The position numbers were made by a program, and so were the translations under genes. A stretch of 64,000 nucleotides of DNA from IMG/VR virus record IMGVR_UViG_3300042885_001472; one strand, given 5' to 3'. Below the pieces are notes generated by a model. The model did no database searches and had not been told where the DNA came from. It saw only the letters and a list, made by a program, of their open reading frames with translations. The stretch's first letter is position 1. The number at the start of each line of letters is the position of its first letter. Shown one piece after another: positions 8,911 through 21,286 of the stretch. The DNA is from a virus (taxonomy: Duplodnaviria; Caudoviricetes).

Positions 8911-9060
8911 ATGACAGTAAAACAATTAATTGATAACTTATCAAATATTGATGGTGAAAAGATTAGTCGTAAAAATATTCAAGCACATTCTTTTAAAGAA
9001 ATACGAAAATCTCACAATATTCACAAAATGCTCGTGGTGGGTTCTTTTAATTGGTTATAA
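8911..9060 (+). CDS. 49-aa ORF ending in the first attC core; eroded distal cassette or junction
   Basis: Manual translation MTVKQLIDNLSN..GSFNWL*; stop lies in TTATAAC. Confidence 0.35.
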   Translation: MTVKQLIDNLSNIDGEKISRKNIQAHSFKEIRKSHNIHKMLVVGSFNWL

Positions 9061-9110
9061 CGTTTTGCGGCTAATAGACGTTTCTTAATGTTTATTAGGT
9101 GCGGTTATAA
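9055..9110. repeat. attC-like site 1 (56 bp)
   Basis: TTATAAC gttttgcgg ctaata..tattag gtgcg GTTATAA. Confidence 0.85.
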
Positions 9111-9167
9111 GCTGACGGTTACGAATGTTACTATGAAAAATTAATTTAAAAAAAAACAAATATAAAA

Positions 9168-9446
9168 ATGGAAAATAAGACAGCATTAATTGCAAAAAGA
9201 GATGAGTTACAAAAAGAAATTTATCTTTTAAATACTAAAATAAAAGAGCTTAATAAGATTGAATTATTTGAAAAATACAATGTTAAAATGGGGGACGAAA
9301 TTACTATTGTAGGTAAAAAAGGAGTAATAACAAATAACTGTGGTAGTTATCTTTACTATACCGCTTATAAAAAAGATGGGACTTTAGGCACTAGAGAAAG
9401 TAGGATTTGGAGTTTTGACACGTTTACAAAAACCGTTTCAAAGTAG
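9168..9446 (+). CDS. cassette 1 hypothetical protein
   Basis: ORF between sites 1 and 2. Confidence 0.75.
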   Translation: MENKTALIAKRDELQKEIYLLNTKIKELNKIELFEKYNVKMGDEITIVGKKGVITNNCGSYLYYTAYKKDGTLGTRESRIWSFDTFTKTVSK

Positions 9447-9457
9447 CTACCGTTTGC

Positions 9458-9554
9458 TTATAACGTTTTGCAGCTTTAAGAAGTGGCTGCCTAAAAATTA
9501 CTTCATTTGACAAACAATGCTTATGGCAGACATTTTTTAAAGGTGCTGTTATAA
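9458..9554. repeat. attC-like site 2 (97 bp)
   Basis: TTATAAC gttttgcag ctttaa..ttaaag gtgct GTTATAA. Confidence 0.85.
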
Positions 9555-9574
9555 GCTGATAAAAATTACGGATT

Positions 9575-9772
9575 ATGACCGCAAAAGAATTTGTTTTAGA
9601 AAAATGTCCAAAGGCAAGAGCTGAAAGGCAAGTGTCAGGTAGAATTAAAGGTATGCAGACTGTATATTATTTAATTCGTGAACGAGGGCAAACAATGTAT
9701 ATGGCAGAAGGCAAGAGCGAAAGTAACGCTTGGGTAAATGCTAAAAAGTTTCTATTGGAACGTGAACAGTAG
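9575..9772 (+). CDS. cassette 2 hypothetical protein
   Basis: ORF between sites 2 and 3. Confidence 0.75.
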   Translation: MTAKEFVLEKCPKARAERQVSGRIKGMQTVYYLIRERGQTMYMAEGKSESNAWVNAKKFLLEREQ

Positions 9773-9786
9773 TAATTTTTATTTCC

Positions 9787-9871
9787 CTATAACGGACGGA
9801 GCTTGTGGCTTAAATAAACCAAACAATGCTATTTTAACACTTCCGCTTTTTGCCACAAGGTTGTGTTAGTT
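9787..9871. repeat. attC-like site 3 (85 bp)
   Basis: CTATAAC ggacggag cttgtggc..gccacaag gttgt GTTAGTT; nearly identical to site 10. Confidence 0.85.
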
Positions 9872-9901
9872 TTTAGGCACTTAATTAAACATAAAAAGAA
9901 A

Positions 9902-10276
9902 ATGGAAAAAATAGAAATAGAATTATCAGAAAGCAAATTAAACACATTAAAAAGTGTAGAATATTTAAAAATAAATGATTTAGAGTTTGTTTCAAAAAAT
10001 AAATGCGCTCAATTATGTGCTGATTTTGCAATTGAACATCAAAAAAAGTCACTTAGGAAAACAGCATTAATCGGCTTAATCATAATGTTTTCATCATTTA
10101 TTTTTGCAATAATTGAAACGTTATACTTTGGCTCAAATTGGTATCCACAATCAAAAAATGAAGTAGTGTGTGATTATATAGCTTTATACACTTGCGGATT
10201 AGGCACTTCTTTATTTGGTTTTTGTATCATTAAGCAATTCATAATTGAAGTGTCTGAGAATATTAAGAGTGCTTGA
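9902..10276 (+). CDS. cassette 3 membrane protein (2 TM)
   Basis: ATG 9902 preferred over the track GTG at 9863, which overlaps the attC core. Confidence 0.7.
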   Translation: MEKIEIELSESKLNTLKSVEYLKINDLEFVSKNKCAQLCADFAIEHQKKSLRKTALIGLIIMFSSFIFAIIETLYFGSNWYPQSKNEVVCDYIALYTCGLGTSLFGFCIIKQFIIEVSENIKSA

Positions 10277-10363
10277 AACTAACGGACGAAGCTAACATAC
10301 GTTTGTAAACCACACCTAGCATTTAACCATTATAACTCAAATGTTTGTTAGGTTGTGTTACCA
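10277..10363. repeat. attC-like site 4 (87 bp)
   Basis: AACTAAC ggacgaag ctaaca..tgttag gttgt GTTACCA. Confidence 0.85.
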
Positions 10364-10415
10364 CACGTTTTGAATACTTAAATTAAATATCAATAGAAAA
10401 TTAAAATAAAAAATT

Positions 10416-10670
10416 ATGACACCAAAAGAGAAAGCAACCGAATTATATCAAAAATATTACAATAACTATGGTTACTATGGAATACCAGTAGATGCCGTTA
10501 AACATAGTAAAGAATGTGCTAATATTTGTATTGATGAAATACTGAAATCACAACCAATTGAACCAAATAATAGTAAACCCTTTGGAGTTAAAATACAATC
10601 TGTTAGGCAAAACTTTACTGATGCTGATGAATATTGGAAATTAGTTAAACAAGAACTTGAACTTCTTTAG
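10416..10670 (+). CDS. cassette 4 phage-type hypothetical protein (MTPKEKA.EL)
   Basis: ORF between sites 4 and 5. Confidence 0.75.
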   Translation: MTPKEKATELYQKYYNNYGYYGIPVDAVKHSKECANICIDEILKSQPIEPNNSKPFGVKIQSVRQNFTDADEYWKLVKQELELL

Positions 10671-10690
10671 AATATCCAAAACAAAATGAG

Positions 10691-10821
10691 TGGTAACGTT
10701 TTGCAGCCTTATTTAGTGCGGGCTTAAAAGCACTATGTTAATTTAAAACTGAATATTATGAATAGTAAAAATGTTTCCAACGAAGCCGAAAAACCCGCAT
10801 TGAATAAGGGTGCTGTTAGTG
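10691..10821. repeat. attC-like site 5 (131 bp)
   Basis: TGGTAAC gttttgcag ccttatt..aataagg gtgct GTTAGTG. Confidence 0.85.
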
Positions 10822-10985
10822 GCAGTTATTGTGTGAGAAAACACGATTTGTTTGCTGTAACATATCAAAAAGTAGCTGAAAATTTAAGTAAAGATGAAGC
10901 TGAAAGTATTAAAAACGAAATGCAAACAAAGTCAATAGAGGAGTGTGGTTGCCCTGTACCTGTATTTTTTGTAAGTGAAGTATAA
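10758..10985 (+). CDS. cassette 5 protein starting inside attC 5
   Basis: MNSKNVSNEAEKPALNKGAVS is encoded by the attC. Confidence 0.7.
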   Translation: MNSKNVSNEAEKPALNKGAVSGSYCVRKHDLFAVTYQKVAENLSKDEAESIKNEMQTKSIEECGCPVPVFFVSEV

Positions 10986-10989
10986 TTAC

Positions 10990-11069
10990 CACTAACGGCT
11001 GGATATTTAATCTGTTTGGCTGTCTGAGCAATTATGTAATAGCCAAATTGATTGAATATTTTGTTAGTT
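10990..11069. repeat. attC-like site 6 (80 bp)
   Basis: CACTAAC ggctggatatttaatc..gattgaatatttt GTTAGTT. Confidence 0.8.
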
Positions 11070-11107
11070 TACAGTAAAATAAACCAAATAAATTAAAATA
11101 AAAAAAT

Positions 11108-11497
11108 ATGAACAGAGAAATTAAGTTTAGAGCATGGAATGGTAAGGAAATGCGATGCGATGTTAATATAAATGATGGCAAACCTGTAAGGAAAGGCTAT
11201 CAATGGTTTAATGAATCAAATGATATTCATAACTCAGAGCCTATGCAACTTATAGGGTTAAAGGACAAAAATGGAGTTGAAATTTATGAAGGTGATATTT
11301 TAGAAGATAAAAATAAAAACTTTATGTATAATGTATTTAGGGTTGCAGGAGGTTTTGCAATAAATACGCATCAAAATGACTTTAATAGAAAAACTCCATT
11401 TTACACATCTTTTGATATGCAAACATCTTCATATATTAATGGAAATTGTGAGGTAAAAGGTAATATTTATCAACCTATATTAACATTAGAAAAGTAA
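11108..11497 (+). CDS. cassette 6 YopX family protein
   Basis: REIKFRAW..MQLIGLKDKNGVEIYEGDI..EVKGNIY. Confidence 0.9.
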   Translation: MNREIKFRAWNGKEMRCDVNINDGKPVRKGYQWFNESNDIHNSEPMQLIGLKDKNGVEIYEGDILEDKNKNFMYNVFRVAGGFAINTHQNDFNRKTPFYTSFDMQTSSYINGNCEVKGNIYQPILTLEK

Positions 11498-11520
11498 ACA
11501 TCAATGGTTTATTTTATTGA

Positions 11521-11600
11521 AACTAACGGCATCAAGCTAAAAGCTGACCGCCTTTATAAGCGGTTTGGTGATGGCGGTTTGATTTTAGGTTGGGTTATAA
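11521..11600. repeat. attC-like site 7 (80 bp)
   Basis: AACTAAC ggcatcaag ctaaaa..ttttag gttgg GTTATAA. Confidence 0.85.
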
Positions 11601-11651
11601 GCTGACGGTTACGAATGTTACTATGGAAAATTAATTTAAAAAAACATACAG

Positions 11652-11996
11652 ATGGAAAACAAAGGAGAATATTTGGGTTTATGTAATTTAAGCTCTTGTA
11701 CAACACACAAACCAGCAACTTATTATAATTACGGTACATCAAAATACTATTGTAAAGAATGTGCTGAAAGATTAAATTCTGATGAATATAATCAACGTGA
11801 TGCAATGCGTATGTTTGGACATGATTTATGTATTGAGGAATCAGTAAGACCTAAACCATTAAATGAAATTATTGAAAAACAAAATTACCTTCAATTTACT
11901 GAACCTTACATTATGGAATTAGCTTCTGATTTTAGACCAACAGTTAGACATAGCCCTTATATTAAATCTGAACCAAGTCAACAAAATATAATTTAG
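11652..11996 (+). CDS. cassette 7 Cys-containing hypothetical protein
   Basis: CNLSSC..YCKEC..HDLC. Confidence 0.7.
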   Translation: MENKGEYLGLCNLSSCTTHKPATYYNYGTSKYYCKECAERLNSDEYNQRDAMRMFGHDLCIEESVRPKPLNEIIEKQNYLQFTEPYIMELASDFRPTVRHSPYIKSEPSQQNII

Positions 11997-12087
11997 CTAA
12001 TCCAGACGAAGGATATGCTGATTTTGATAATGCACAAAAAGAGTGTAATAAGCTAAACAAAAATGTTTCAAAGTAGCTACCGTTTGC

Positions 12088-12141
12088 TTATAACGTCTGA
12101 TGATAAACAATCGTTTTAATGTTGTTTATCATTTGTTATAT
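12088..12141. repeat. attC-like site 8 (54 bp)
   Basis: TTATAAC gtctg atgataaacaa..ttgtttatcat tt GTTATAT. Confidence 0.8.
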
Positions 12142-12164
12142 TTAGTAAAAAATAATTTATACAT

Positions 12165-12344
12165 ATGAAATACCAAGCACTTAAAAAAGAATATTTTGCA
12201 GTTTATGAAAAAGAACCAAGACATCAGAATGAAAAAAATGGTGTAATACTTTCACCATATAATACGAAAGAAGATGCTGAAAAAGCGAGAGTTAAATATG
12301 GTTATGGTGATGATAATTATTATGTAGATAAACTCATAAATTAA
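12165..12344 (+). CDS. cassette 8 hypothetical protein (59 aa)
   Basis: Manual translation MKYQALKKEYFAVYEKE..YVDKLIN*. Confidence 0.65.
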   Translation: MKYQALKKEYFAVYEKEPRHQNEKNGVILSPYNTKEDAEKARVKYGYGDDNYYVDKLIN

Positions 12345-12354
12345 TTTTTATTGA

Positions 12355-12410
12355 ATATAACGTTTTGCAGCTAATAGCCGTTTCTTAATGGATATTAGGT
12401 GCGGTTATAT
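12355..12410. repeat. attC-like site 9 (56 bp)
   Basis: ATATAAC gttttgcag ctaata..tattag gtgcg GTTATAT; near copy of site 1. Confidence 0.85.
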
Positions 12411-12466
12411 TTAGTTGCCTAGAATAGCAATGCGGAGTGATAATTTAATAATTAAAAATAAAACAA

Positions 12467-12868
12467 ATGAAAACATTAACCATAAAACAACCGTGGGCTA
12501 GTTTGATTGCAAACGGAATAAAGGACATTGAAAATAGAACTTGGAAAACAAATCATAGAGGTAAAATTTATATTCATGCTGCTCAAATAAATTCAAAGGA
12601 TTGGGAGGACTTAATAAATTTACCCGATAATCAAAGAAATGAATTTTTTGAATTTGTTAAACACAAAATACTTAACACAAAATCGAATAGTAGCATTATT
12701 GGCGAAGTTGAAATAGTAGATTGTGTTCAAGATAGTAAATCAATTTGGGCTTTACCAAACCATTATCATTGGGTTTTAAAAAATGCTATAATTTACGATG
12801 AGCCTATTTTAAACGTAAAAGGTAAATTATCATTGTGGGAGTACACAGGTGCGGTGGGAGGCAATTGA
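12467..12868 (+). CDS. cassette 9 ASCH domain protein
   Basis: LTIKQPWASLIANGIKDIENRTW..RGKIYIHAA..VKGKLSLW. Confidence 0.9.
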   Translation: MKTLTIKQPWASLIANGIKDIENRTWKTNHRGKIYIHAAQINSKDWEDLINLPDNQRNEFFEFVKHKILNTKSNSSIIGEVEIVDCVQDSKSIWALPNHYHWVLKNAIIYDEPILNVKGKLSLWEYTGAVGGN

Positions 12869-12953
12869 ATATAACGGACGGAGCTTGTGGCTGAAATAAA
12901 CCTAACAATGCTATTTTAACACTTCCGCTTTTTGCCACAAGGTTGTGTTAGTT
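12869..12953. repeat. attC-like site 10 (85 bp)
   Basis: ATATAAC ggacggag cttgtggc..gccacaag gttgt GTTAGTT. Confidence 0.85.
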
Positions 12954-12987
12954 TACAGTAAAATAAACCAAATTAAAATAAAAAAAT

Positions 12988-13377
12988 ATGAATAGAAAAA
13001 TTAAATTTAGAGCTTGGGATAGTTTTTATAAAATGATGATACATTCATCTTATAAAGATTTTTCGGTATTATCAGAATTTTTTAAAGAATTAGAAGATAG
13101 AAAAGACAATGATTGCAAAATAATGCAATTTACAGGATTAAAGGATAAAAATGGAGTTGATATTTATGAGGGCGACATTATTAAATGCTCATTAGCTACT
13201 GAACCCGAAGATAAAGGATTTATTTGTTTATGGCGAAATTTTAAATGGGAATTTTGTAATGTTAGATTTAAAGATGACGAATCATTTAATTTAACCGACT
13301 TTGATTATTTAACTGTAAAAACAGAAGTAATTGGAAACATATATGAGAATGCGGATATGTTAACATCAGAAAAGTAA
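12988..13377 (+). CDS. cassette 10 YopX family protein
   Basis: RKIKFRAWD..MQFTGLKDKNGVDIYEGDI..EVIGNIYEN. Confidence 0.9.
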   Translation: MNRKIKFRAWDSFYKMMIHSSYKDFSVLSEFFKELEDRKDNDCKIMQFTGLKDKNGVDIYEGDIIKCSLATEPEDKGFICLWRNFKWEFCNVRFKDDESFNLTDFDYLTVKTEVIGNIYENADMLTSEK

Positions 13378-13400
13378 ACATCAATGGTTTATTTTATTGA

Positions 13401-13479
13401 AACTAACGGTTGGATATTGGCTTAGTTTGGCTTTCTAACCACTTATATAATGCCAAATTGAGCCAATATTTTGTTAGTA
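13401..13479. repeat. attC-like site 11 (79 bp)
   Basis: AACTAAC ggttggatattggct..agccaatatttt GTTAGTA. Confidence 0.85.
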
Positions 13480-13561
13480 TTTCGTTTACTTTTACTTTTT
13501 TAGGGTAGCATTAGAAAATTAAACTATCTGATTTATAGCACTTTACAAAAATAATGTAAAA

Positions 13562-13597
13562 TATATTTGTGTCCATCAAATACATTATGTACATTTA
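13562..13597 (+). promoter_or_regulatory. cassette 11 internal promoter
   Basis: TTTG 13566-13569, 20 nt, TACATTTA 13590-13597; TATATTTG at 13562 also fits. Confidence 0.5.
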
Positions 13598-13629
13598 CAC
13601 TCAGATAACAACAACTAAAAAATAAGATT

Positions 13630-13785
13630 ATGAAATTATTAAATTTAACAGTAAGAAACATTAAAGGAGAATTAGCAACTGGATGTTATAGCCACACTAA
13701 AAATAAGGTTAAATTTTACGTTGTTGTTTGGAATAATACTCAATTTTTTGGTACTGATTTAGAAACAATTTTTAACACTTTATAA
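13630..13785 (+). CDS. cassette 11 ORF a (51 aa)
   Basis: Manual translation MKLLNLTVRNIKGELATG..TIFNTL*. Confidence 0.55.
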   Translation: MKLLNLTVRNIKGELATGCYSHTKNKVKFYVVVWNNTQFFGTDLETIFNTL

Positions 13786-13786
13786 T

Positions 13787-14011
13787 ATGAAGATTAAACA
13801 AGAAAAAATAGAAATAAAAGTAAATATATTTTTTTTAGAAGAAAATGAAGATGTTTTATCTGAGATAAATAAAGCAATTAATAAAAAAACATTTACAGTA
13901 ATTGTAAAAAATAAAGTTTATCATGTTGCTGGACATGGAATGTTAAAAGATTTAGATAATTTAAAAGATGCTTTATTAGATATTAAGTTTTTAACAAATG
14001 CCTTATTATGA
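13787..14011 (+). CDS. cassette 11 ORF b, hypothetical
   Basis: ORF track. Confidence 0.65.
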   Translation: MKIKQEKIEIKVNIFFLEENEDVLSEINKAINKKTFTVIVKNKVYHVAGHGMLKDLDNLKDALLDIKFLTNALL

Positions 14012-14250
14012 AAACTCCAATATCACAAACAACAGCTAAAACAAACGCTAAAAAATACAATGATTATTTCACAGCTAATGAACAAACTTATAAAACAATG
14101 AAAAGAAGTAAACGCATAGAATTAACGGAAAGCACTATTAAGTATTTAGCAAAAAAAGCTATTGACGAAGGGACAAGTTTTAAACCTTATGTCGAACAAA
14201 TTTTGGAAAGTTTAGCCAATACACAGGTGGGCAGGAAAAAAGAAAAGTAA
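14008..14250 (+). CDS. cassette 11 ORF c, ribbon-helix-helix-like regulator
   Basis: KRIELTESTIKYLAKKAIDEGTSFKPYVEQILE. Confidence 0.55.
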   Translation: MKTPISQTTAKTNAKKYNDYFTANEQTYKTMKRSKRIELTESTIKYLAKKAIDEGTSFKPYVEQILESLANTQVGRKKEK

Positions 14251-14255
14251 ATGGA

Positions 14256-14349
14256 TACTAACAGTCGGCAATATGAAACGGTTGCCTTATAAGACGTTTC
14301 AAAATATAACTCAGTTTTCTGGCAACTGTTTTTATATTGCTTGTTATAG
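14256..14349. repeat. attC-like site 12 (94 bp)
   Basis: TACTAAC agtcg gcaatat..atattgc tt GTTATAG with inner gttgcc/ggcaac stem. Confidence 0.85.
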
Positions 14350-14367
14350 CCAGTTAATTTTAACGAT

Positions 14368-14598
14368 ATGTACAAAATAGTAAAAGAAATTCACACTTAT
14401 AAACAAGGTAGGATAAAATTTAGAATACACGAAAGATTTTTATGGAGATGGATACCAAGTGAAAGTTTTTCTGAATATGAAACCTATGAATTGGCAGAAA
14501 AAGCAATTATAGAAAAACTGAACGGCAAACATGGTGGTATTGTTGAATTGAAAAATGATGTTTATAAATTTTATCCGTATTCATTACCGATGCCTTAA
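14368..14598 (+). CDS. cassette 12 hypothetical protein
   Basis: ORF between sites. Confidence 0.75.
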   Translation: MYKIVKEIHTYKQGRIKFRIHERFLWRWIPSESFSEYETYELAEKAIIEKLNGKHGGIVELKNDVYKFYPYSLPMP

Positions 14599-14602
14599 TT
14601 GG

Positions 14603-14678
14603 CTATAACGGTTTGCAGCTAATAGACGGGCGGTTGAAACATAGTAGATGTCCGCCTGTTTATTAGGTGCTGTTATAG
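14603..14678. repeat. attC-like site 13 (76 bp)
   Basis: CTATAAC ggtttgcag ctaata..tattag gtgct GTTATAG. Confidence 0.85.
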
Positions 14679-14731
14679 GTAGGTTGTAACGAATGTTTAA
14701 TTAATACACAATATAAAAAAATAATAATAAT

Positions 14732-14914
14732 ATGATAGAAATAATAATTTGGCTAATTTTTTTCCCATTAGCAACAACAATAAATAGATACTTTTTAGAT
14801 AGAAATAAAAAGGATAGAAATGAGGAAGTAACATCTAAAGAAGTAAAAGACAAATTAGATTTTTTTGAGCTTGCCGTTTTTGTGATAGTGCTTATAATTT
14901 TAATCAAACGCTAA
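14732..14914 (+). CDS. cassette 13 small membrane protein
   Basis: two hydrophobic segments. Confidence 0.65.
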   Translation: MIEIIIWLIFFPLATTINRYFLDRNKKDRNEEVTSKEVKDKLDFFELAVFVIVLIILIKR

Positions 14915-14942
14915 AATGTTTCTAAATGATACCACAACTTAC

Positions 14943-15023
14943 CTATAACGTTAAGAAGCCTTGCTTAGTTTGGCTTTTTAACACACATAGCACTTGCCAA
15001 ATTGAGCAAGGGTTGTGTTAGTA
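14943..15023. repeat. attC-like site 14 (81 bp)
   Basis: CTATAAC gttaagaag ccttgct..agcaagg gttgt GTTAGTA. Confidence 0.85.
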
Positions 15024-15068
15024 TTAGGTGGCTTAAAAGTGAATATTAATTTTAAATAAAAATAAAAA

Positions 15069-15278
15069 ATGGAATACGGAATATTAAAAGTAGGTTGCAA
15101 AGTAAAATATACTGATGAAGCTAAAAAAGAATTGCCAACAGTTTTTAAAGATATAACAAAGGATAAAGTAAAAACTGTAAAATGGATTAGTAAAAATCAA
15201 GAGAACTGTGATTTTGTGGATGGTGACAGTTGTGATATTTACTGGTTAGAACTCGTAGAAGATTCTAAAGCCACTTGA
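15069..15278 (+). CDS. cassette 14 hypothetical protein
   Basis: ORF between sites; stop lies in the terminal inverted repeat. Confidence 0.75.
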   Translation: MEYGILKVGCKVKYTDEAKKELPTVFKDITKDKVKTVKWISKNQENCDFVDGDSCDIYWLELVEDSKAT

Positions 15279-15367
15279 TACTAACGGTATCAAGCTAAAA
15301 GCAGTTGCTAAACCAACCTAATATATTTGAGCGTTAACTCGCAAATTGATTTTAGGTTGTGTTAGGA
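15279..15367. repeat. attC-like site 15 (89 bp)
   Basis: TACTAAC ggtatcaag ctaaaa..ttttag gttgt GTTAGGA. Confidence 0.85.
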
Positions 15368-15394
15368 TTAGTTAAATTTTAAAAATAAAAAATT

Positions 15395-15589
15395 ATGTAT
15401 ATAACAAAAAGCGGTAAAGTTGTAATGTATAATAATGATGGTTACGATTATACTGAAGTTTTTAATAGTGATAGAAATTGGGAAGATAAATCAGGTATGT
15501 ACTTAAACTACTGTAAAAATTGCGAAAAACATTTTTTTGGTAATAAGTATAGAATAATATGCAAAAAATGTAGTAACGGTAAAATTTAA
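15395..15589 (+). CDS. cassette 15 zinc-ribbon protein
   Basis: CKNC..CKKC. Confidence 0.7.
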   Translation: MYITKSGKVVMYNNDGYDYTEVFNSDRNWEDKSGMYLNYCKNCEKHFFGNKYRIICKKCSNGKI

Positions 15590-15593
15590 TTGA

Positions 15594-15653
15594 ACCTAAC
15601 GGTTTGCAGCTAATAGACGTTTTTCTTAAAATGGATATTAGGTGCTGTTATAG
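15594..15653. repeat. attC-like site 16 (60 bp)
   Basis: ACCTAAC ggtttgcag ctaata..tattag gtgct GTTATAG. Confidence 0.85.
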
Positions 15654-15696
15654 GTAGGTTGTAACGAATGTTTAATTAATACACAATATAAAAAAT

Positions 15697-16044
15697 ATGG
15701 AAATAAGCGAATTAAGATTAGGTAATTATGTAATGTATATTGATAATTATATATTGCCAGTTACTACCGATACATTTTATTGGATATCCGAATGTGTTAG
15801 AACTGAAGATGATTACAAACCAATAGAATTAACAGAAGATATACTTTTTAAATGCGGGTTTAAATTGGCTATTGATGAAAATGTTTATACGTTAGATGAT
15901 ACAATTGAATTAACGCAAACTGATTATGGAAATAGTTTTTATTTTATGGGCAATTTTATAAAATCAGATATAAAATATTTACACCAATTACAGAACTTGT
16001 ATTTTGCAATAACTGATATTGAGTTAAATGTATCAAAAATATAA
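15697..16044 (+). CDS. cassette 16 'ELRxGN' phage family protein
   Basis: ELRLGNY..KPIELTE..HQLQNLYF; paralogue of 55436-56606 genes. Confidence 0.8.
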   Translation: MEISELRLGNYVMYIDNYILPVTTDTFYWISECVRTEDDYKPIELTEDILFKCGFKLAIDENVYTLDDTIELTQTDYGNSFYFMGNFIKSDIKYLHQLQNLYFAITDIELNVSKI

Positions 16045-16064
16045 ATAACAAAGCACCAACTTAC

Positions 16065-16140
16065 TTATAACGTTTTGCAGCTAATGGCTGGCGGCTCTAA
16101 GCGGTTATATAATGCCGCTTGACATTAGGTGCTGTTATGT
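16065..16140. repeat. attC-like site 17 (76 bp)
   Basis: TTATAAC gttttgcag ctaatg..cattag gtgct GTTATGT. Confidence 0.85.
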
Positions 16141-16201
16141 TGGTGTGTCGGAATGTGTGTGAGGCAGTTTTATTTTATTAATTTTTAAAAAAGCGAAGGA
16201 A

Positions 16202-16384
16202 ATGAATATACCAAATAGTTACGCAAAAGCAATAGTAGCCGACATGAAGGCTAAAATAAAAAAACATGAAAAGACTTGTTATTACAATGATAATTTATGT
16301 GAAGGTAAAGTTAGTAGAGTAAATTCACATCATGTTTTTTTATGTGAAAAATGCTTGAATGAATACAATAATATAAAAGATTAA
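16202..16384 (+). CDS. cassette 17 ORF a, Cys-rich
   Basis: ORF track. Confidence 0.65.
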   Translation: MNIPNSYAKAIVADMKAKIKKHEKTCYYNDNLCEGKVSRVNSHHVFLCEKCLNEYNNIKD

Positions 16385-16387
16385 ACT

Positions 16388-16660
16388 ATGAAAAAAGCAG
16401 AAGAAATACTAAAACAAAACTGCATAAAGCAACAATGGGACAAACAAATACTAACAGATGACTTTACATTGGAAGTTACTATACCATCAATGGAAGAATA
16501 CGCTAATCAATTCAAAGTAAAAATGTGGGGTTGCTATGCTTGTGGTAAATTACTTAGAATTTATGCTACACAAAAAGAAGCGGATGAAGCAAGAACAAGA
16601 TGGAGTACCGAATGTATTGTTATAGTAAAGGAAGTAGTTGTTGGTGACGGGGGTGCGTAG
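16388..16660 (+). CDS. cassette 17 ORF b, hypothetical
   Basis: ORF track. Confidence 0.7.
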   Translation: MKKAEEILKQNCIKQQWDKQILTDDFTLEVTIPSMEEYANQFKVKMWGCYACGKLLRIYATQKEADEARTRWSTECIVIVKEVVVGDGGA

Positions 16661-16689
16661 GCTTTTAAAAATTAATAAAATAAAATTGA

Positions 16690-17008
16690 ACATAACGGTT
16701 GCGGATATATGAATGTAAAAAATTAATAATCAGAACGATGATAACAACACAAAATTTAACAGAATTAGGTTTTAGTGAGATACTTAATGTATTCACTGGA
16801 AAACAAGTTTGGGTTTTAGGTGAAGAAGATAGAGAGATATGTGGAAACCCTTGTAGATTACCAATACTTTATTACAACATAGAAACCCAAACTTGTAAAG
16901 TAGTTAGGGGTGAATTTTGTGTTGTTCAACGAGAATGTAAATCAGAAGAAGAAATTAGAAAGTTTGTAGAATCTATTAATTTTTTATTTCATATATCCGT
17001 TGTTATAA
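16690..17008. repeat. attC-like site 18 (319 bp, mostly coding)
   Basis: ACATAAC ggtt gcggatatatgaa..ttcatatatccgt t GTTATAA. Confidence 0.75.
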
Positions 17009-17097
17009 ATAGTAAAAAACCTATCGAACAAGTATTATCCGAAGCGATTAAAGAATCTTATGATAAGATAAAAGACAATTTAGAACCACCACTTTAA
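16738..17097 (+). CDS. cassette 18 protein encoded mainly inside attC 18
   Basis: ATG 16738; reads through GTTATAA 17002 as HISVVINSKK. Confidence 0.7.
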   Translation: MITTQNLTELGFSEILNVFTGKQVWVLGEEDREICGNPCRLPILYYNIETQTCKVVRGEFCVVQRECKSEEEIRKFVESINFLFHISVVINSKKPIEQVLSEAIKESYDKIKDNLEPPL

Positions 17098-17110
17098 GGT
17101 TTTTTATTGT

Positions 17111-17187
17111 TTATAACGGTTTGCAGCTAATAAATCGGGCGATGGAAATATATGTAATTTCCGCCTGTTTATTAGCTGCTGTTATAG
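17111..17187. repeat. attC-like site 19 (77 bp)
   Basis: TTATAAC ggtttgcagctaata..tattagctgct GTTATAG. Confidence 0.85.
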
Positions 17188-17231
17188 GTAGGTTGTAACG
17201 AATGTTTAATTGAAACTTTAATATAAAAAAT

Positions 17232-17510
17232 ATGGAAAATATAAGTTTAAAAGATAAAGTAAGCGATATACTTGAATATTGGGAAAATGATTATGATGAA
17301 ACTTGTGATGCTACCGCTATTTCAAAAATAGAAGCATTGATAAAAGAGGAAAATCAAAAATTGAAAAAAGAAAATGATATTTATAAATCTTTTATATGTC
17401 ATGTAAAAAATAGTTTTAAAATGATTAATGATGATATAAGTGAAATAGATGTTTATAGAAGTTTAAGGACAAGAGCTGATGATATTTTAAATAACAATTT
17501 TCCTTTTTAA
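17232..17510 (+). CDS. cassette 19 hypothetical coiled-coil protein
   Basis: ORF between sites. Confidence 0.75.
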   Translation: MENISLKDKVSDILEYWENDYDETCDATAISKIEALIKEENQKLKKENDIYKSFICHVKNSFKMINDDISEIDVYRSLRTRADDILNNNFPF

Positions 17511-17548
17511 TTAACACAAAAAATGTTTCTAAATGATACACAACTTAC

Positions 17549-17657
17549 CTATAACGCTTTGCAGCTTTGAGCCGTTTACCAAATATTAATAACAAAAAAA
17601 TAAATAACGAATATGAATAACAGAAAAATAAAAAATGGCTTAAAGGTGTTGTTAGTG
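17549..17657. repeat. attC-like site 20 (109 bp)
   Basis: CTATAAC gctttgcag ctttgagcc..ggcttaaag gtgtt GTTAGTG. Confidence 0.85.
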
Positions 17658-17843
17658 GCTGTTTTATTTGTAAAATGTACTACAAATAAATTGATTATTA
17701 CTGAATGTCAAAGAGCTAATTTAACAAGCCTTTTTATTCAAAAAATGGAAATTGGAAAAGTTTATAAAATCAATTTATGTGATGAGTATTTTAACTACTC
17801 ATTTGATGGCGAAAAATATACTTTGGAACGATATAAAAAATAG
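17613..17843 (+). CDS. cassette 20 putative lipoprotein starting inside attC 20
   Basis: MNNRKIKNGLKVLLVAVLFVKC signal-peptide-like N-terminus. Confidence 0.6.
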   Translation: MNNRKIKNGLKVLLVAVLFVKCTTNKLIITECQRANLTSLFIQKMEIGKVYKINLCDEYFNYSFDGEKYTLERYKK

Positions 17844-17844
17844 C

Positions 17845-17929
17845 CACTAACGTTCCTCAAATATGAGTAGTAAATTTTTCTATTGAGATTTGGAAAATCA
17901 AAATTTATTTCTTATATTTGTTGTTATAT
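17845..17929. repeat. attC-like site 21 (85 bp)
   Basis: CACTAAC gttcct caaatatgag..cttatatttg tt GTTATAT. Confidence 0.8.
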
Positions 17930-17968
17930 TTAGTTTTCAGTTTGTTTTACCTTAAAAAAATATAAATT

Positions 17969-18214
17969 ATGATTAAAAAGAATGAAGAACAATTTGATAG
18001 TGGTGGTATAATACTTAAACACACTTTTCTTTTAGGTTTCGATGAACTAAGAATACCAACCGAAGATATTACAGAAGATATGATAGATACATATGTAAAA
18101 GAAAAATCATCAGAATTTGAATGGGAATTTAAGTTTTTTCTGATGATGAAATTAGGTTATATTGGGAAAGAAGGTGATATTTGGATAAAAGAACCAAAAC
18201 AAACTGAAAATTGA
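17969..18214 (+). CDS. cassette 21 hypothetical protein
   Basis: C-terminal KQTEN* is encoded by the cassette terminal inverted repeat. Confidence 0.75.
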   Translation: MIKKNEEQFDSGGIILKHTFLLGFDELRIPTEDITEDMIDTYVKEKSSEFEWEFKFFLMMKLGYIGKEGDIWIKEPKQTEN

Positions 18215-18344
18215 ATATAACGTTTTGTATTGGCGAAGAAGCGGAATTTTACCACTGAAGTTGATACGAAGCACCAATGCTTATTTACCTACAAATGTTC
18301 ATACGAAGCACTAAAACCGCTTTTTTGCCAATACTTTGTTAGTG
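18215..18344. repeat. attC-like site 22 (130 bp)
   Basis: ATATAAC gtttt gtattggc gaagaagcgg..ccgcttttttgccaatac ttt GTTAGTG. Confidence 0.85.
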
Positions 18345-18412
18345 GCTGATGCGGATTTTTAGCACTCATTTTCAGTAAGTTAGAAAATATTTTCAAAATA
18401 AAAGAAAATAAA

Positions 18413-18444
18413 TTTGGTTTGTATTGTTTTTGTATATACATTTG
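18413..18444 (+). promoter_or_regulatory. cassette 22 promoter facing the integrase
   Basis: TTTG 18413-18416, 20 nt, TACATTTG 18437-18444 (Bacteroidetes consensus). Confidence 0.7.
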
Positions 18445-18470
18445 CGTTACAATAATTAAATAAAAACAAA

Positions 18471-18749
18471 ATGACAAACGAACAATTAAACGCTATGAGC
18501 GTATCAGATTTAAGAGAATTAAATTCAAGAGTAATAGCTTATATTAAGTTTAAAAACTCAATGGCTAGTGGTGAAAACAAATCCAAAATATCAGTAGGTA
18601 TGACGGTAACGATTAAAACCAATAATCCTCTATTATTAGATTCTGTTTTTACTTTGGAAAAGATAAATAAAAAAAATGCTGTTTGTAGAGATATTAAAAC
18701 TCAACAAACTTGGAATGTTTTAATTTGTAACGTTATAGAAAAACCATAA
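18471..18749 (+). CDS. cassette 22 ORF a, hypothetical
   Basis: ORF track. Confidence 0.75.
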   Translation: MTNEQLNAMSVSDLRELNSRVIAYIKFKNSMASGENKSKISVGMTVTIKTNNPLLLDSVFTLEKINKKNAVCRDIKTQQTWNVLICNVIEKP

Positions 18750-18916
18750 TGGAAAAGAAAAAACGAGATGTAAGCCTTCCAAAAAGGTTTAATTCAGAAG
18801 ATGTAAATAAATGGCAAGAACAAGCTAATTTAACAACTGGTGGTAATCTTACCTTATGGATGGAAAACACATTGAATAACGCTGTAAAGAAGCAAAATGT
18901 CAAATCGAAGCAGTAA
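18749..18916 (+). CDS. cassette 22 ORF b (55 aa), RHH/CopG-like
   Basis: Manual translation MEKKKRDVSLPKRFNSEDVNKWQEQAN..GNLTLWMENTLN; TAATG coupling. Confidence 0.55.
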   Translation: MEKKKRDVSLPKRFNSEDVNKWQEQANLTTGGNLTLWMENTLNNAVKKQNVKSKQ

Positions 18917-18928
18917 CGTAGCATTTGC

Positions 18929-18960
18929 CACTAACTATTATATATAAACAAGTATAGTCT
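18929..18960 (-). other. attI-like site
   Basis: Lone CACTAAC core with no partner arm, about 46 bp upstream of the integrase; bottom strand GTTTATATATAATA-GTTAGTG. Confidence 0.6.
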
Positions 18961-18981
18961 AAACCCTTTAATAACAATACT

Positions 18982-19782
18982 TTGAACCAAAAAATTATAA
19001 AGATTTGTGAAGAAAAGTTTATATATTTAAACTATTCTCCAAGAACAAAGGATAACTATTTAATCCACATAAAATACTTTCTAAAATCTTTAGGGGATAA
19101 ACAAATCATCCATTGTAACTCTAAAGACTTCCAGTCTTATTTGGATAATTATAACTTCACATCTGTTTCACAACAAAACCAGATTATTAACTCAATCAGA
19201 TTCTTATATAAATTTGGGTTAAATAAAAAATACGATAAAGTTTCATTCAAACGACCAAAATCTGAAAAGAAGTTACCCCAGGTAATTGATCATTATCATA
19301 TAAAAGAGTCGTTATCTAAAATTAATAATCTTAAACACAAAACAATCTTATCTATAACATATTCAGTTGGGTTAAGAGTTTCTGAGGTTATAAATCTAAA
19401 AATAGAAGATATTGATTCAAGGAGAATGATCATCCATATTAAAAACGCTAAAGGTAGGAAAGATAGGATAGTTCCACTTTCTCAAAACATATTAGATTTA
19501 TTGAGGGTTTACTATAAAGAATATAGACCGGTGGAATACTTATTTAATGGTCAAAATAATCTACAATATACTTCTACTAGTTGTAATCAAATTGTTAAAA
19601 AACATTTAGGTGAAAAATATCATATCCACCAGTTAAGACATAGTTGTGCGACAAATCTCCTTGAAAATGGTACTGATTTAAAATTAATACAAAAAATATT
19701 AGGTCATTCTTCAGTAAAAACGACAGAAATTTATACACACGTTTCAAATCAAATGTTGAGTAAAATAAATCTACCAATTTAG
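18982..19782 (+). CDS. tyrosine recombinase (integron-integrase-like, no IntI insertion)
   Basis: TTG start; YSPRTKDNY SAM-like N-terminus; GLRVSE (R), AKGRKDR (K), HQLRH, LGHSS, TEIYT catalytic set. Confidence 0.92.
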   Translation: MNQKIIKICEEKFIYLNYSPRTKDNYLIHIKYFLKSLGDKQIIHCNSKDFQSYLDNYNFTSVSQQNQIINSIRFLYKFGLNKKYDKVSFKRPKSEKKLPQVIDHYHIKESLSKINNLKHKTILSITYSVGLRVSEVINLKIEDIDSRRMIIHIKNAKGRKDRIVPLSQNILDLLRVYYKEYRPVEYLFNGQNNLQYTSTSCNQIVKKHLGEKYHIHQLRHSCATNLLENGTDLKLIQKILGHSSVKTTEIYTHVSNQMLSKINLPI

Positions 19783-19784
19783 AA

Positions 19785-19816
19785 TTTGTTTTTTTAAATA
19801 AAATATATTATATTTG
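19785..19816 (+). promoter_or_regulatory. Bacteroidetes-type promoter after the element
   Basis: TTTG 19785-19788, 20 nt, TATATTTG 19809-19816. Confidence 0.65.
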
Positions 19817-19820
19817 TTGG

Positions 19821-20231
19821 ATGAAAATAGAAATACCATTATACGATATTAAAATTAAGTTTTACTTTGACTATGATTTAGGTAAACCCATTAAAAAGAT
19901 AAAGAAAAAACATAATAAGAAAAAACTTTATAATGTAAGAAGTAAAATTGATTTTTATGGAATTGTTATTGGTGAGTTTATACCAAAGAATAAGTTAATT
20001 TATGTTTTAATAGAAAAAACTAAAAATGGTATTAATGTGGATACATTAACTCACGAAATATATCATTTAACAACCAAAATAATGGAACACAATAACTTCA
20101 AATTTAATAAAACAGATGAACCTTTTGCGAATTTAAATGGGAAGTTAAATTCAATTATTATGTGTGAATTAATTAAACGAAAGGTGAAATTATATTACCC
20201 AATTGAAACTAAAAAAATAAAAATAAAATAA
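19821..20231 (+). CDS. HExxH-motif protein
   Basis: TLTHEIYH. Confidence 0.55.
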   Translation: MKIEIPLYDIKIKFYFDYDLGKPIKKIKKKHNKKKLYNVRSKIDFYGIVIGEFIPKNKLIYVLIEKTKNGINVDTLTHEIYHLTTKIMEHNNFKFNKTDEPFANLNGKLNSIIMCELIKRKVKLYYPIETKKIKIK

Positions 20232-20234
20232 ATT

Positions 20235-20441
20235 ATGAAAAAATCAGAACAAATTGAAGAAATTGGGACTGCGATTAGTGAATGTTTGAATAAGTTGTAT
20301 GAAACTAAAGAACATTTATCATTTAACCCATTCCCTAAGATGTATCACCCAACAGAGGATTCTTTAAACATACCATTGATTGTTGATGGTAACAAAATTA
20401 TTATTGAAGTAAAATCAGTTTTAGATTATAATATGGTGTGA
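20235..20441 (+). CDS. hypothetical protein
   Basis: ORF track. Confidence 0.6.
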   Translation: MKKSEQIEEIGTAISECLNKLYETKEHLSFNPFPKMYHPTEDSLNIPLIVDGNKIIIEVKSVLDYNMV

Positions 20442-20626
20442 AAAAAACTTGTAAGGAATGTCCTTGGGTTATTAGGAATAAACATAATGATGTGATCATT
20501 AAATTTTCTGAACAAACCGGTAAGAACCATAATTGTCATATGAGTAATGAGGGTAAAATTAACTTATGGTTGGTTAAAAAAAATAGTGAATGTATTGGTA
20601 GAAAACAATTTAATAATTTAAAATAA
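20438..20626 (+). CDS. Cys-rich hypothetical protein
   Basis: CKECPW..CHM..CIG. Confidence 0.6.
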   Translation: MKKTCKECPWVIRNKHNDVIIKFSEQTGKNHNCHMSNEGKINLWLVKKNSECIGRKQFNNLK

Positions 20627-20632
20627 ATAAAC

Positions 20633-20962
20633 ATGAGCGGTGGTCACTGGGACTACATCCAGTATAGATTTACTGATGTAGTGGAAGACATTAAAAGTCT
20701 TATTGAAAAAAATGGTAGAGAGAAAACCAAAGAAGAGATGAAAGATGAAGGGTGGGGAGATCCTAACTGGTATGAAAAGTATCCAGAAGATAAGTTCCAC
20801 ACCAAATATCCGGATGAAGTGATTGAAGAGTTTAAAAATGGGGTTGAAGTTATTGGGAAAGCTCAAGTTTACTTACAGAGAATGGATTGGTTATTGAGTG
20901 GTGATGATGGTGAAGAATCATTTATAAGACGATTAAAAAAAGATTTAGATAACTTAAAATAA
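20633..20962 (+). CDS. conserved phage hypothetical protein (MSGGHWDY)
   Basis: ORF track. Confidence 0.7.
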   Translation: MSGGHWDYIQYRFTDVVEDIKSLIEKNGREKTKEEMKDEGWGDPNWYEKYPEDKFHTKYPDEVIEEFKNGVEVIGKAQVYLQRMDWLLSGDDGEESFIRRLKKDLDNLK

Positions 20963-20968
20963 ATAATA

Positions 20969-21286
20969 ATGTCTAATACATATTACAATCCCTGGTACTA
21001 TTATATTGATAAAACTTTAATTAAAAAGAAAAAACCTTGTGTACCTGGGAATCAAATACATTTACACAATCTTAATGGTTGTTATACCGTACACCATGTG
21101 GAAGTTGGTGGGTTCTATATTCTTAAGGATAGAGTTTATATTAAAAAACCTTGGAGTGAATTTAAATGTCTTAAGGGTTATGGTGAGAGTGTTGAATCAA
21201 AAATGAAAAAAAATATTAAATCATTATTACGTTATAATGATGAGATAAGAACTAATCTTAATTGTATGTTAAATTTAATAAGATAA
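20969..21286 (+). CDS. hypothetical protein
   Basis: ORF track. Confidence 0.6.
   Translation: MSNTYYNPWYYYIDKTLIKKKKPCVPGNQIHLHNLNGCYTVHHVEVGGFYILKDRVYIKKPWSEFKCLKGYGESVESKMKKNIKSLLRYNDEIRTNLNCMLNLIR

Follow-up and report, generated by a model that had tools for sequence, protein, structure and literature searches.

Integrons are defined by the recombinase IntI and by the entry of promoterless cassettes, in a single orientation, behind the promoter Pc. The integrons of Treponema and relatives that are called reverse or inverted have an integrase gene and cassettes of one direction: intI, which encodes a true IntI, is placed upstream and reads into the array, whose cassettes retain the order of open reading frame (ORF) first and attC hairpin second. 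Enzymes of the Xer family are able to recombine a folded single-stranded hairpin with a double-stranded site through exchange of one strand, as in the XerCD-mediated integration of phage DNA of the CTX type, and the arms of dif, the Xer target, end in TAA before the cleaved bond. Here we analyze a 64,000-nt stretch of DNA from a virus of the Caudoviricetes (IMG/VR record IMGVR_UViG_3300042885_001472; hereafter, the window), in which positions 18929-18951 probably represent the attI-like junction of an integron-like platform by which a phage captures genes and which is operated by a short Xer-like recombinase. As we read it, this platform breaks both of the integron rules, that of the enzyme and that of the orientation, while keeping such hallmarks as hairpin sites with AAC/GTT cores, hybrid sites within the array, a docking site beside the recombinase gene, and turnover at that site.

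Virulent phages, including a Polaribacter phage, are already known to carry attC-type arrays (CALINs), some of which were recombined by IntI1 (Qi et al. 2023, PMC9892861); that study deals with IntI-type elements and with clusters of attC sites of the IntegronFinder type for which the phage provides neither a cognate integrase nor an attI. In pdif modules, genes are enclosed by Xer sites (PMC7399989). The promoter-stem-loop (PeSL) cassettes of T4-type phages are presented as being shuffled through the homology of their long conserved motifs, without a recombinase of their own (PMC2839356, PMC4122927). The locus under study resembles the CALINs in being an array of attC-type sites in a phage genome, but no Xer-like enzyme, conserved attI-like site or reversed cassettes are described for them, and our literature search found no description of such a platform.

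An earlier note on this DNA, drawn up from its letters, had pointed to a half-site just ahead of the integrase gene (18929-18985), and the observation is real. The terminal left core CACTAAC (18929-18935, + strand) is the exact complement of GTTAGTG, which opens GTTAGTGGCTGATGC at 18338-18352. It has neither an inner stem nor a partner core: the region 18915-19050 folds like shuffled sequence (z = -0.04), to be compared with a z of about -6.8 for the + strand fold of the array hairpins. Next come, as described, TATTATATATAAAC (18936-18949) and the TTG start codon of the integrase at 18982. Taken alone, the half-site motif lies within chance, because a scan with TAACTANNATATAT at one mismatch or less gave 4 matches against 3.3 expected in DNA of 27% G+C (the sole exact match being at 18932). 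The case for an attI-like site therefore rests on comparison with relatives.

We found 42 loci in IMG/VR that encode relatives of the integrase (51-87% identity), and a pattern scan of metagenomes added eight; a DNA search of the phage collection with positions 17000-21000 returned no close relative. In every locus with sufficient sequence, a hairpin array lies upstream of the integrase gene and is co-oriented with it, and array and integrase gene adjoin in 29 of 29 arrays. Each of the 276-318 kb phages checked has a single integrase copy, and the backbone genes flanking the module showed no conservation between loci. When 35 distinct loci were aligned on the last TAAC before the integrase, the left side read aTTRnnnM-TAAC and the right side TA(T/G)(T/A)ATATAT(A/C)aaCA. 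Positions +1 to +10 to the right of TAAC are nearly invariant, whereas the leftward sequence is unrelated between loci, being variable except for aTTR...MTAA. In the window, the integrase-side half of the attI-like site is the block TATTATATATAAACAA (18936-18951, + strand). Since this block stays directly beside TAAC although its spacing from the integrase start codon varies between 37 and 107 nt, it is better explained as a recombination site than as a promoter or a ribosome-binding feature. It shows no dif- or lox-type dyad symmetry and is not an inverted copy of the left arm.

Closely related phages part exactly at this point. Rightward of TAAC, loci L012 and L013 agree at 99.84% over 10.85 kb, and leftward they have nothing in common; L024 and L025 are 100% identical over 1229 nt to the right and differ on the left; L029/L030 and L009/L010 likewise diverge at TAAC. 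One and the same attI-like site with the integrase 5' end is preceded by three different terminal cassettes in L045, L046 and L049, and one attI-like site bears two different terminal cassettes in L043/L044 and L047. In L009 and L010 the backbone-side units are common and the integrase-side units differ, as expected if turnover occurs at the integrase end. With the integrase side conserved and the cassette side variable, the comparison supports the idea that the core at 18929-18935 behaves as the cassette-side half of an attI-like site, that is, a non-hairpin site beside the integrase gene at which cassettes appear to be inserted. We also considered the conserved block as a prophage attL/attR junction and rejected this, as phage genes lie on both sides of it in contigs of 100-318 kb. 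The decamer ATATATAAAC (18941-18950), which is part of the block, has a perfect inverted copy, GTTTATATAT, at 19028-19037 inside the integrase ORF (codons EKFIYLN). Folding gave no stem between the two that was better than in shuffled sequence, and the copy may simply represent conserved coding sequence.

A protein search of the phage collection brought up a like layout in flavobacterial phages from the North Sea. In the Polaribacter phages Freya_1 to Freya_10 (MT732463-MT732472), the integrase is 37.6% identical to that of the window over 96% of its length, and outside the region that precedes the integrase gene the isolates are 99-100% identical to one another. Freya_10 has the sequence of Freya_9 with one additional 304-nt unit (the mini-hairpin CAAC..GTTG and the ORF Freya10_10) inserted at AAC^ACCCCTATAAC, where the caret marks the joint, and Freya_6 equals Freya_5 plus one unit in the same position. 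Deletions from a left core to the attI-like site are found in Freya_5 and in Freya_1, the site being empty in the latter. Finally, Freya_8 equals Freya_10 minus an internal 902-nt unit (a hairpin and three ORFs) with CAAC^ at both ends. All five differences are thus bounded by left cores or by the attI-like site. The array accounts for the range of genome sizes among the isolates (44.0-48.9 kb), and related short integrases occur in Cellulophaga phage Ingeline and in the Polaribacter phages Danklef and Leef. With arrays that differ unit by unit between isolates, Freya_1 to Freya_10 represent a tractable cultured system.

The array of the window itself is contained in 24 lake metagenome runs from 2016-2024. 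These population data consist of Logan contigs, in which the joints are single short contigs, several of them flagged 'between: not known', and we treat the following two as hints. One contig joins 17118 to 17854, meaning left core 19 to left core 21, and another joins 12087 to 18932, a left core to the TAAC of the attI-like site. A further joint, 9821 to 12904, falls inside two hairpins that are 87% identical and could be either an assembly artefact or a product of homologous recombination. The contig depth of 11906-12339 was 4-10 times that of neighboring bins in all four lake metagenomes. Hairpin 8, of the GATGATAAACAATCG.. type, is the commonest hairpin type across related phages, so that this segment is probably common to many co-occurring phages.

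The cassette array (9055-18935, + strand) is made of 22 hairpin sites of the form xxxTAAC...GTTAyyy, with left cores from 9058 to 18218, alternating with 22 ORF-bearing segments. The hairpins are imperfect palindromes of 50-313 nt, and the segments between them hold one to three + strand ORFs. Read on the + strand, a site starts with an R box (xxxTAAC plus G) and a 4-nt bulge on the 5' arm (GTTT-type, or in general GKTT-type, directly 3' of TAAC on the better-folding strand), continues with a stem in which a G.G mismatch recurs 4 bp from the start and with a variable loop, and closes with a single base before GTTA on the 3' arm. Sites were called by an arm-alignment scan, which replaced an energy-only hairpin finder that was too permissive; the scan missed some sites, including three in the window that were added by hand. 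Imperfect hairpins with AAC/GTT cores, conserved in structure but not in sequence, are what characterizes attC, and they were found at the 22 sites of the window and at about 150 sites in the relatives. Among the array ORF products there are two YopX paralogues, one ASCH protein and members of several PHROG families; these Pfam and PHROG matches indicate that the + strand coding of the array is real. The distal end of the array is a complete hairpin (9055-9110, + strand) opening with the left core TTATAAC, and homology to the left flank of L031 ends at 9062, the end of this core.

Two further statements of the earlier note, about the hairpins that precede the ORFs, held up as well. Hairpins 14606, 15597 and 17114 (those of 'chassis C') have a common left arm, GGTTTGCAGCTAATA, and the ORFs at 10758, 16738 and 17613 start within the loop of the hairpin to their left. 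The right arms of hairpins 5 and 20 (10758-10830 and 17613-17665) are translated as the N-termini of cassette proteins (..PALNKGAVSG.. and ..GLKVLLVAVLFVKC..), so that part of the recombination site doubles as coding sequence; the second of these N-termini resembles a lipoprotein-type signal peptide. The stretch 16690-17008 holds one 313-nt 'hairpin' whose loop contains most of a 119-residue ORF conserved in L015 and L023, and in L023 the C-terminus differs from just past the right core.

The cores of the array turned out to match those on the far side of an ORF and not those of their own hairpin. For the window, a triplet following GTTA is perfectly complementary to the triplet before the next TAAC, on the other side of the ORF, in 20 of 22 cases (the other two match at 2 of 3 positions), whereas the same triplet compared with the one before the TAAC of its own hairpin scores a mean of 1.4 of 3, meaning no complementarity. 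In the relatives, perfect pairs number 82 of 102 across ORFs and 16 of 151 within hairpins, with a random expectation of 8.5%. For the window, the right core of the last hairpin agrees with the attI-side core, and the same is true of 21 of 29 loci, again with 8.5% expected for random pairs. In cassette 22, for example, the ORF-flanking cores GTTAGTG (18338) and CACTAAC (18929) are perfect complements, whereas the left core of its own hairpin, ATATAAC (18215), is not complementary. Complementary cores on either side of the ORF, as known from integrons, are therefore present here, and since they pair across ORFs and not within hairpins, the array hairpins must be recombinant hybrids. This places crossovers between the triplets that bound a hairpin and makes the terminal xxxTAA part of the last cassette. 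The same complementarity led us to reject static hairpins or insertions resembling MITEs (miniature transposable elements with inverted repeats). It cannot separate crossover at the left core from crossover at the right core, as both models predict pairing across the ORF.

The earlier note had placed the crossover at the left core (AA^C on the + strand). We compared segments shared between phages (matches of at least 85% identity), and these, together with three ORF starts and the Freya units, agree with it; the claim does not hold without exception, because breakpoints at right cores occur too, as discussed below. Every shared match that contains the left arm of a hairpin starts at the left core. 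Beyond a shared hairpin, the match extends downstream into the leader or ORF 11 times, and only once does it take in the ORF upstream (L024/L039, with the commonest hairpin type). Of nine shared matches that contain an ORF, eight go no further than the following left core. The three best matches, namely window 16691-17119 with L015 5307-5735 (96.7%), L005 with L023 (495 nt, 99.4%) and L015 with L024 (315 nt, 100%), extend from one left core to the next. Moreover, a right-core crossover would sever the ORFs at 10758, 16738 and 17613 from their start codons, which fits the left-core alternative. These comparisons support a cassette composed of C, hairpin, GTTAyyy, leader, ORF and xxxTAA, with crossover at TAA^C on the + strand. 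So delimited, cassette 22 would span 18221-18934 (+ strand) and comprise C, the hairpin body, GTTAGTG, a promoter-like leader, two ORFs (18471-18749 and 18749-18916) and a terminal ..CACTAA. No complete attC-like site follows hairpin 22 (ATATAAC ... GTTAGTG; 18215-18344, + strand) in the array, and the terminal core at 18929-18935 would be the cassette-derived half of the junction.

As claimed earlier, every cassette gene is reversed relative to classical integrons: the ORFs face the integrase in 29 of 29 arrays. Counting ORFs of at least 50 amino acids, these arrays hold 176 on the + strand (50.6 kb) versus 36 shadow ORFs on the - strand, and no inverted cassette was seen among them. For classical integrons, cassettes facing Pc have never been observed (PMC5027507). 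The + strand also folds better at 147 of 152 sites and contains 420 G.T pairs, against 81 for the - strand; a like signature was reported for the recombined bottom strand of classical attC sites (1.24 vs 0.39 G:T pairs; PMC5027507). Because the folded strand is here the sense strand, we gave the folding bias less weight than the junction data. Cumulative GC skew indicates that the + strand is G-rich up to about 42 kb, where gene orientation flips; should the skew be due to replication, the array's folded + strand would be the lagging-strand template, as has been reported for classical chromosomal integrons.

Classical cassette ORFs read away from attI, driven by Pc, and the integrase gene is divergent; here the integrase gene is co-directional and downstream. 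Promoter-like motifs of the form TTTG..TAnnTTTG precede few cassettes (13562, 17889 and 18413). The last of them, a match to the Bacteroidota-type motif TTTG..N..TAnnTTTG at 18413-18444 (+ strand), lies in cassette 22, 34 nt before ORF 18471, and is a candidate promoter by motif. No leftward promoter-like motif was found in the integrase region, near 18900-19800. Given the geometry of the array, expression via read-through plus occasional cassette-borne promoters is the forced reading, and we infer that this is how the cassette genes would be transcribed.

One may ask whether the cassettes are, after all, in the classical orientation, each consisting of an ORF and its downstream hairpin, with crossover at the right core, a real attI at the 9055 end and CACTAAC being a truncated attC stump. 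Such a layout would account for the ORF stops that adjoin a left core followed by a hairpin, as in classical cassettes, for the extra bases on the 5' arm of the + strand, which recall the classical top strand, and for the L024/L039 segment made of an ORF and a downstream hairpin; complementarity across ORFs would be equally expected. However, ORF segments are shared without the downstream hairpin in 8 of 9 cases, the distal units are the common ones in L009/L010, and the block to the right of TAAC is kept in 35 relatives, with near-identical phages varying exactly there. Furthermore, Freya units are gained and lost at the integrase side, three ORFs would lose their start codons, and the 9055 end is a complete hairpin rather than a half-site. 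If the Freya comparisons and those of the L012/L013 type stand, the classical orientation is already refuted, and we consider it very improbable.

The recombinase gene (18982-19782, + strand) is downstream of the cassettes and co-directional with them. It encodes a Xer-like tyrosine recombinase of 266 amino acids that starts with TTG, where the relatives use ATG at the matching codon, and that matches the Pfam families Phage_integrase and SAM_4. Its placement depends on hidden Markov model (HMM) scores. Among the NCBIfam models the best is XerA_Arch, with 180.9 bits against a cut-off of 220, followed by XerD (156 vs 330) and XerC (153 vs 335), whereas the integron integrase model TIGR02249 reached 150.6 bits against a cut-off of 265 and matched in two pieces. 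The nearest solved structure is of the XerA type (4a8e, 1e-33). In an alignment to VchIntIA (2a3v), residues 29-173 of the query correspond to 37-176 and residues 214-262 to 265-313; query residues 174-213 thus span VchIntIA 177-264, so that about 48 residues of the IntI-specific region are absent. The catalytic contexts RVSE, KGRKDR, HQLRHS, GHSS and IYTH were seen in the alignments. Judging from its sequence, the product is Xer-like, outside any named Xer family, and not an IntI. As the IntI insert is absent, the word integron is used here by analogy and does not imply membership.

This recombinase would be the catalyst of cassette exchange. The presumed substrate is the folded + strand as single-stranded DNA, with the products resolved by replication; the strand-biased folding at 147 of 152 sites and the confinement of junctions to TAAC bear indirectly on such a single-strand exchange. 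By analogy, cleavage would take place between A and C within TAAC. The TAA^C of one site would then be joined to the TAA^C of another, either hairpin with hairpin or hairpin with the integrase-side non-hairpin site, and in the second case the + strand hairpin would join the attI-like site at TAA^C next to TATTATAT. Cassettes would enter and leave at the integrase-proximal end, internal excision also being possible. With the + strand as the one exchanged at the attI-like site, and the ORFs on the + strand too, every cassette gene comes to face that site and the integrase.

Several observations weigh against this reading. The recombinase lacks the region that contains the I2 helix of IntI, whose acquisition is credited with the shift to single-strand recombination and which is held necessary for recombining hairpins (PMC7790495). 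In the 318-kb phage L036/L037 the integrase (10001-10799; G001:C1:61298-62096; 87% identical) is in two overlapping frames, split at about residue 134, by either a frameshift in the gene or a sequencing error. The folding bias of the + strand could at least partly reflect mRNA selection or structure, or base skew, and the population evidence consists of contigs. The Freya integrase has been published as a lysogeny marker, in a paper in which the terms integron, cassette and hairpin are never used (PMC8776804). Finally, there are anomalies among the shared segments. About 10 of them end at the right core (GTTA), which a single crossover point cannot account for. Hairpin bodies are shared without their ORFs, the ORF segment 12133-12362 is shared with L016 without either flanking hairpin, and the L024/L039 match carries the downstream hairpin. 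Often, a hairpin plus leader is common up to the ATG, with unrelated ORFs behind.

These anomalies raise the possibility of a two-point system, in which both cores are used (the left core of the + strand hairpin and, less often, the right core of the - strand hairpin), so that hairpins and ORFs assort separately and no single definition of the cassette applies; the attI-like site would still set the orientation. The GTTA ends, the sharing of hairpins or ORFs by themselves, and a chimeric ORF in L009/L010, joined at TTGTTTAG, are all consistent with it. It is also known that some classical attC sites recombine on the top strand at a low rate (PMC5027507), and the enzyme at hand is without the insert that gives IntI its strand choice. 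Yet the 11:1 linkage of hairpins to what lies downstream speaks against separate assortment, as do the five Freya differences, all at left cores or at the attI-like site. In addition, attI-like sites recombining with - strand hairpins would yield inverted cassettes, and there is none in 29 arrays. We hold this system to be a doubtful, though not negligible, alternative. Under the single-point reading that we prefer, the right-core breakpoints and the odd sharing could stem from occasional - strand recombination, from secondary-site events or from a route of cassette genesis. Another case of partial sharing is the attI cassette of L049 (238-511 of the reverse complement), which compared with window 12133-12362 is alike in the first 38 nt (right core plus leader) and in the last 32 nt (the four last codons KLIN, the stop and the left core), with an unrelated ORF body.

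Within 9047-18345 of the window, such a 'chassis', meaning a hairpin plus a leader of 40-70 nt to the ATG, recurs before unrelated ORFs, and homology often ends at the start codon. Examples are 14627-14733, 15602-15708 and 17136-17242, as well as 9095-9168 and 11585-11658; others occur in L002/L016, L008/L014, L015/L030 and L019/L024/L033. This sharing may reflect the way in which cassettes arise, or a conserved module with a role in translation or as a promoter.

A more radical alternative is that there is no recombinase platform at all. The hairpins would be regulatory RNA or DNA elements (terminators, PeSL-like or MITE-like) shuffled by homologous or illegitimate recombination, and the integrase would serve lysogeny or dimer resolution, with the conserved block as its attP, a dif-like site or a promoter. 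The sense-strand location of the hairpins, with pairs compatible with G.U, is in keeping with this, and so are the PeSL-like chassis before unrelated ORFs (PMC2839356), the published role of the Freya integrase and the lack of conservation of the module-flanking genes. Against it, junctions of unrelated hairpins have only TAAC(G) in common, and homologous recombination needs a longer match. The core triplets pair across ORFs and not inside hairpins, a pattern not expected of static hairpins or inserted MITEs. The array adjoins the integrase in all 29 cases, and the block follows the position of TAAC, not that of the start codon. To the left and to the right of the junction there is phage DNA, in contigs of more than 100 kb, so that it cannot be a prophage end, and the block has no dif/lox dyad. 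Overall, we regard this explanation as highly unlikely.

The platform can be compared with the systems mentioned at the outset. Like dif, whose arms end in TAA, the window arm ends in ..TAA before the presumed cleaved bond. Unlike Xer/dif and pdif systems, however, it has no dif-like dyad of 28-30 bp, with two inverted 11-bp arms and a center of 6-8 bp; the sites are hairpins with variable bodies, the array is a dedicated one with a phage enzyme, and the NCBIfam Xer cut-offs are not reached. The PeSL elements are similar in that small orphan phage genes lie in hyperplastic regions, with repeated stem-loops at the borders, modular shuffling and a common motif plus leader before unrelated ORFs. 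They differ in relying on long conserved motifs and homology exchange without a recombinase; here, the borders of unrelated hairpins share only the 4-5 nt of TAAC(G), the cores covary across ORFs, and a recombinase plus docking site is always adjacent. The platform is therefore neither a dif-type Xer system nor a PeSL system.

The integrases of the Treponema-type reverse integrons are likewise co-directional with their cassettes, in a non-classical orientation, whereas in the window the array comes first and the integrase gene after it, with the reversal affecting the cassette itself. The likeness to classical integrons is the most extensive: mostly single-gene units lie between imperfect hairpins of variable sequence with fixed AAC/GTT cores, ORF-flanking cores are complementary, the array turns over at a non-hairpin site beside the recombinase gene, the content is mostly orphan genes, and the strand taken to recombine is the better-folding, G.T-rich one (PMC5027507). 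The differences concern the recombinase, which is without the IntI insert, the ORFs, which are directed towards the attI-like site and the integrase and do not run away from a Pc promoter, and the hairpin, which lies upstream of its ORF within the cassette and has the sense strand as its folded strand. Moreover, the 4-nt bulge is on the presumably cleaved 5' arm, whereas classical extrahelical bases are near L'' on the other arm; we found neither such bases near L'' nor a symmetric unpaired central spacer. The carrier is a lytic-type giant phage. In short, the platform works like an integron and departs from one in three respects, namely the IntI insert, the architecture of extrahelical bases and the orientation away from Pc.

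On balance, we lean towards regarding it as a separate gene-capture lineage in phages of Bacteroidota-type hosts, characterized by a Xer-like enzyme without I2, folded sense-strand hairpins, TAA^C, an attI-like site and a reversed logic. According to this logic, the hairpin would precede the gene, genes would face the recombinase, and the transcription unit would have the newest cassette at its end, immediately before the recombinase gene. If this is true, cassettes can be captured by way of hairpins without the IntI innovation, and integron finders that require IntI would miss a whole class of platforms in phages and Bacteroidota. It also raises questions about the need for the I2 helix in hairpin recombination, about strand choice, and about expression when the newest gene is farthest from an upstream promoter. 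For a phage of about 300 kb, the array would be a 10-kb bank of small accessory genes (YopX, ASCH and many orphans) that can be reshuffled by site-specific recombination. The reading of flavobacterial phage integrases as lysogeny markers (PMC8776804) may then be wrong for this integrase family.

Well upstream of the array, a self-BLAST of the window revealed tandem repeats with a 27-nt period at 1-256 and 1051-1276, about 1 kb apart, the copies being 82-91% identical.

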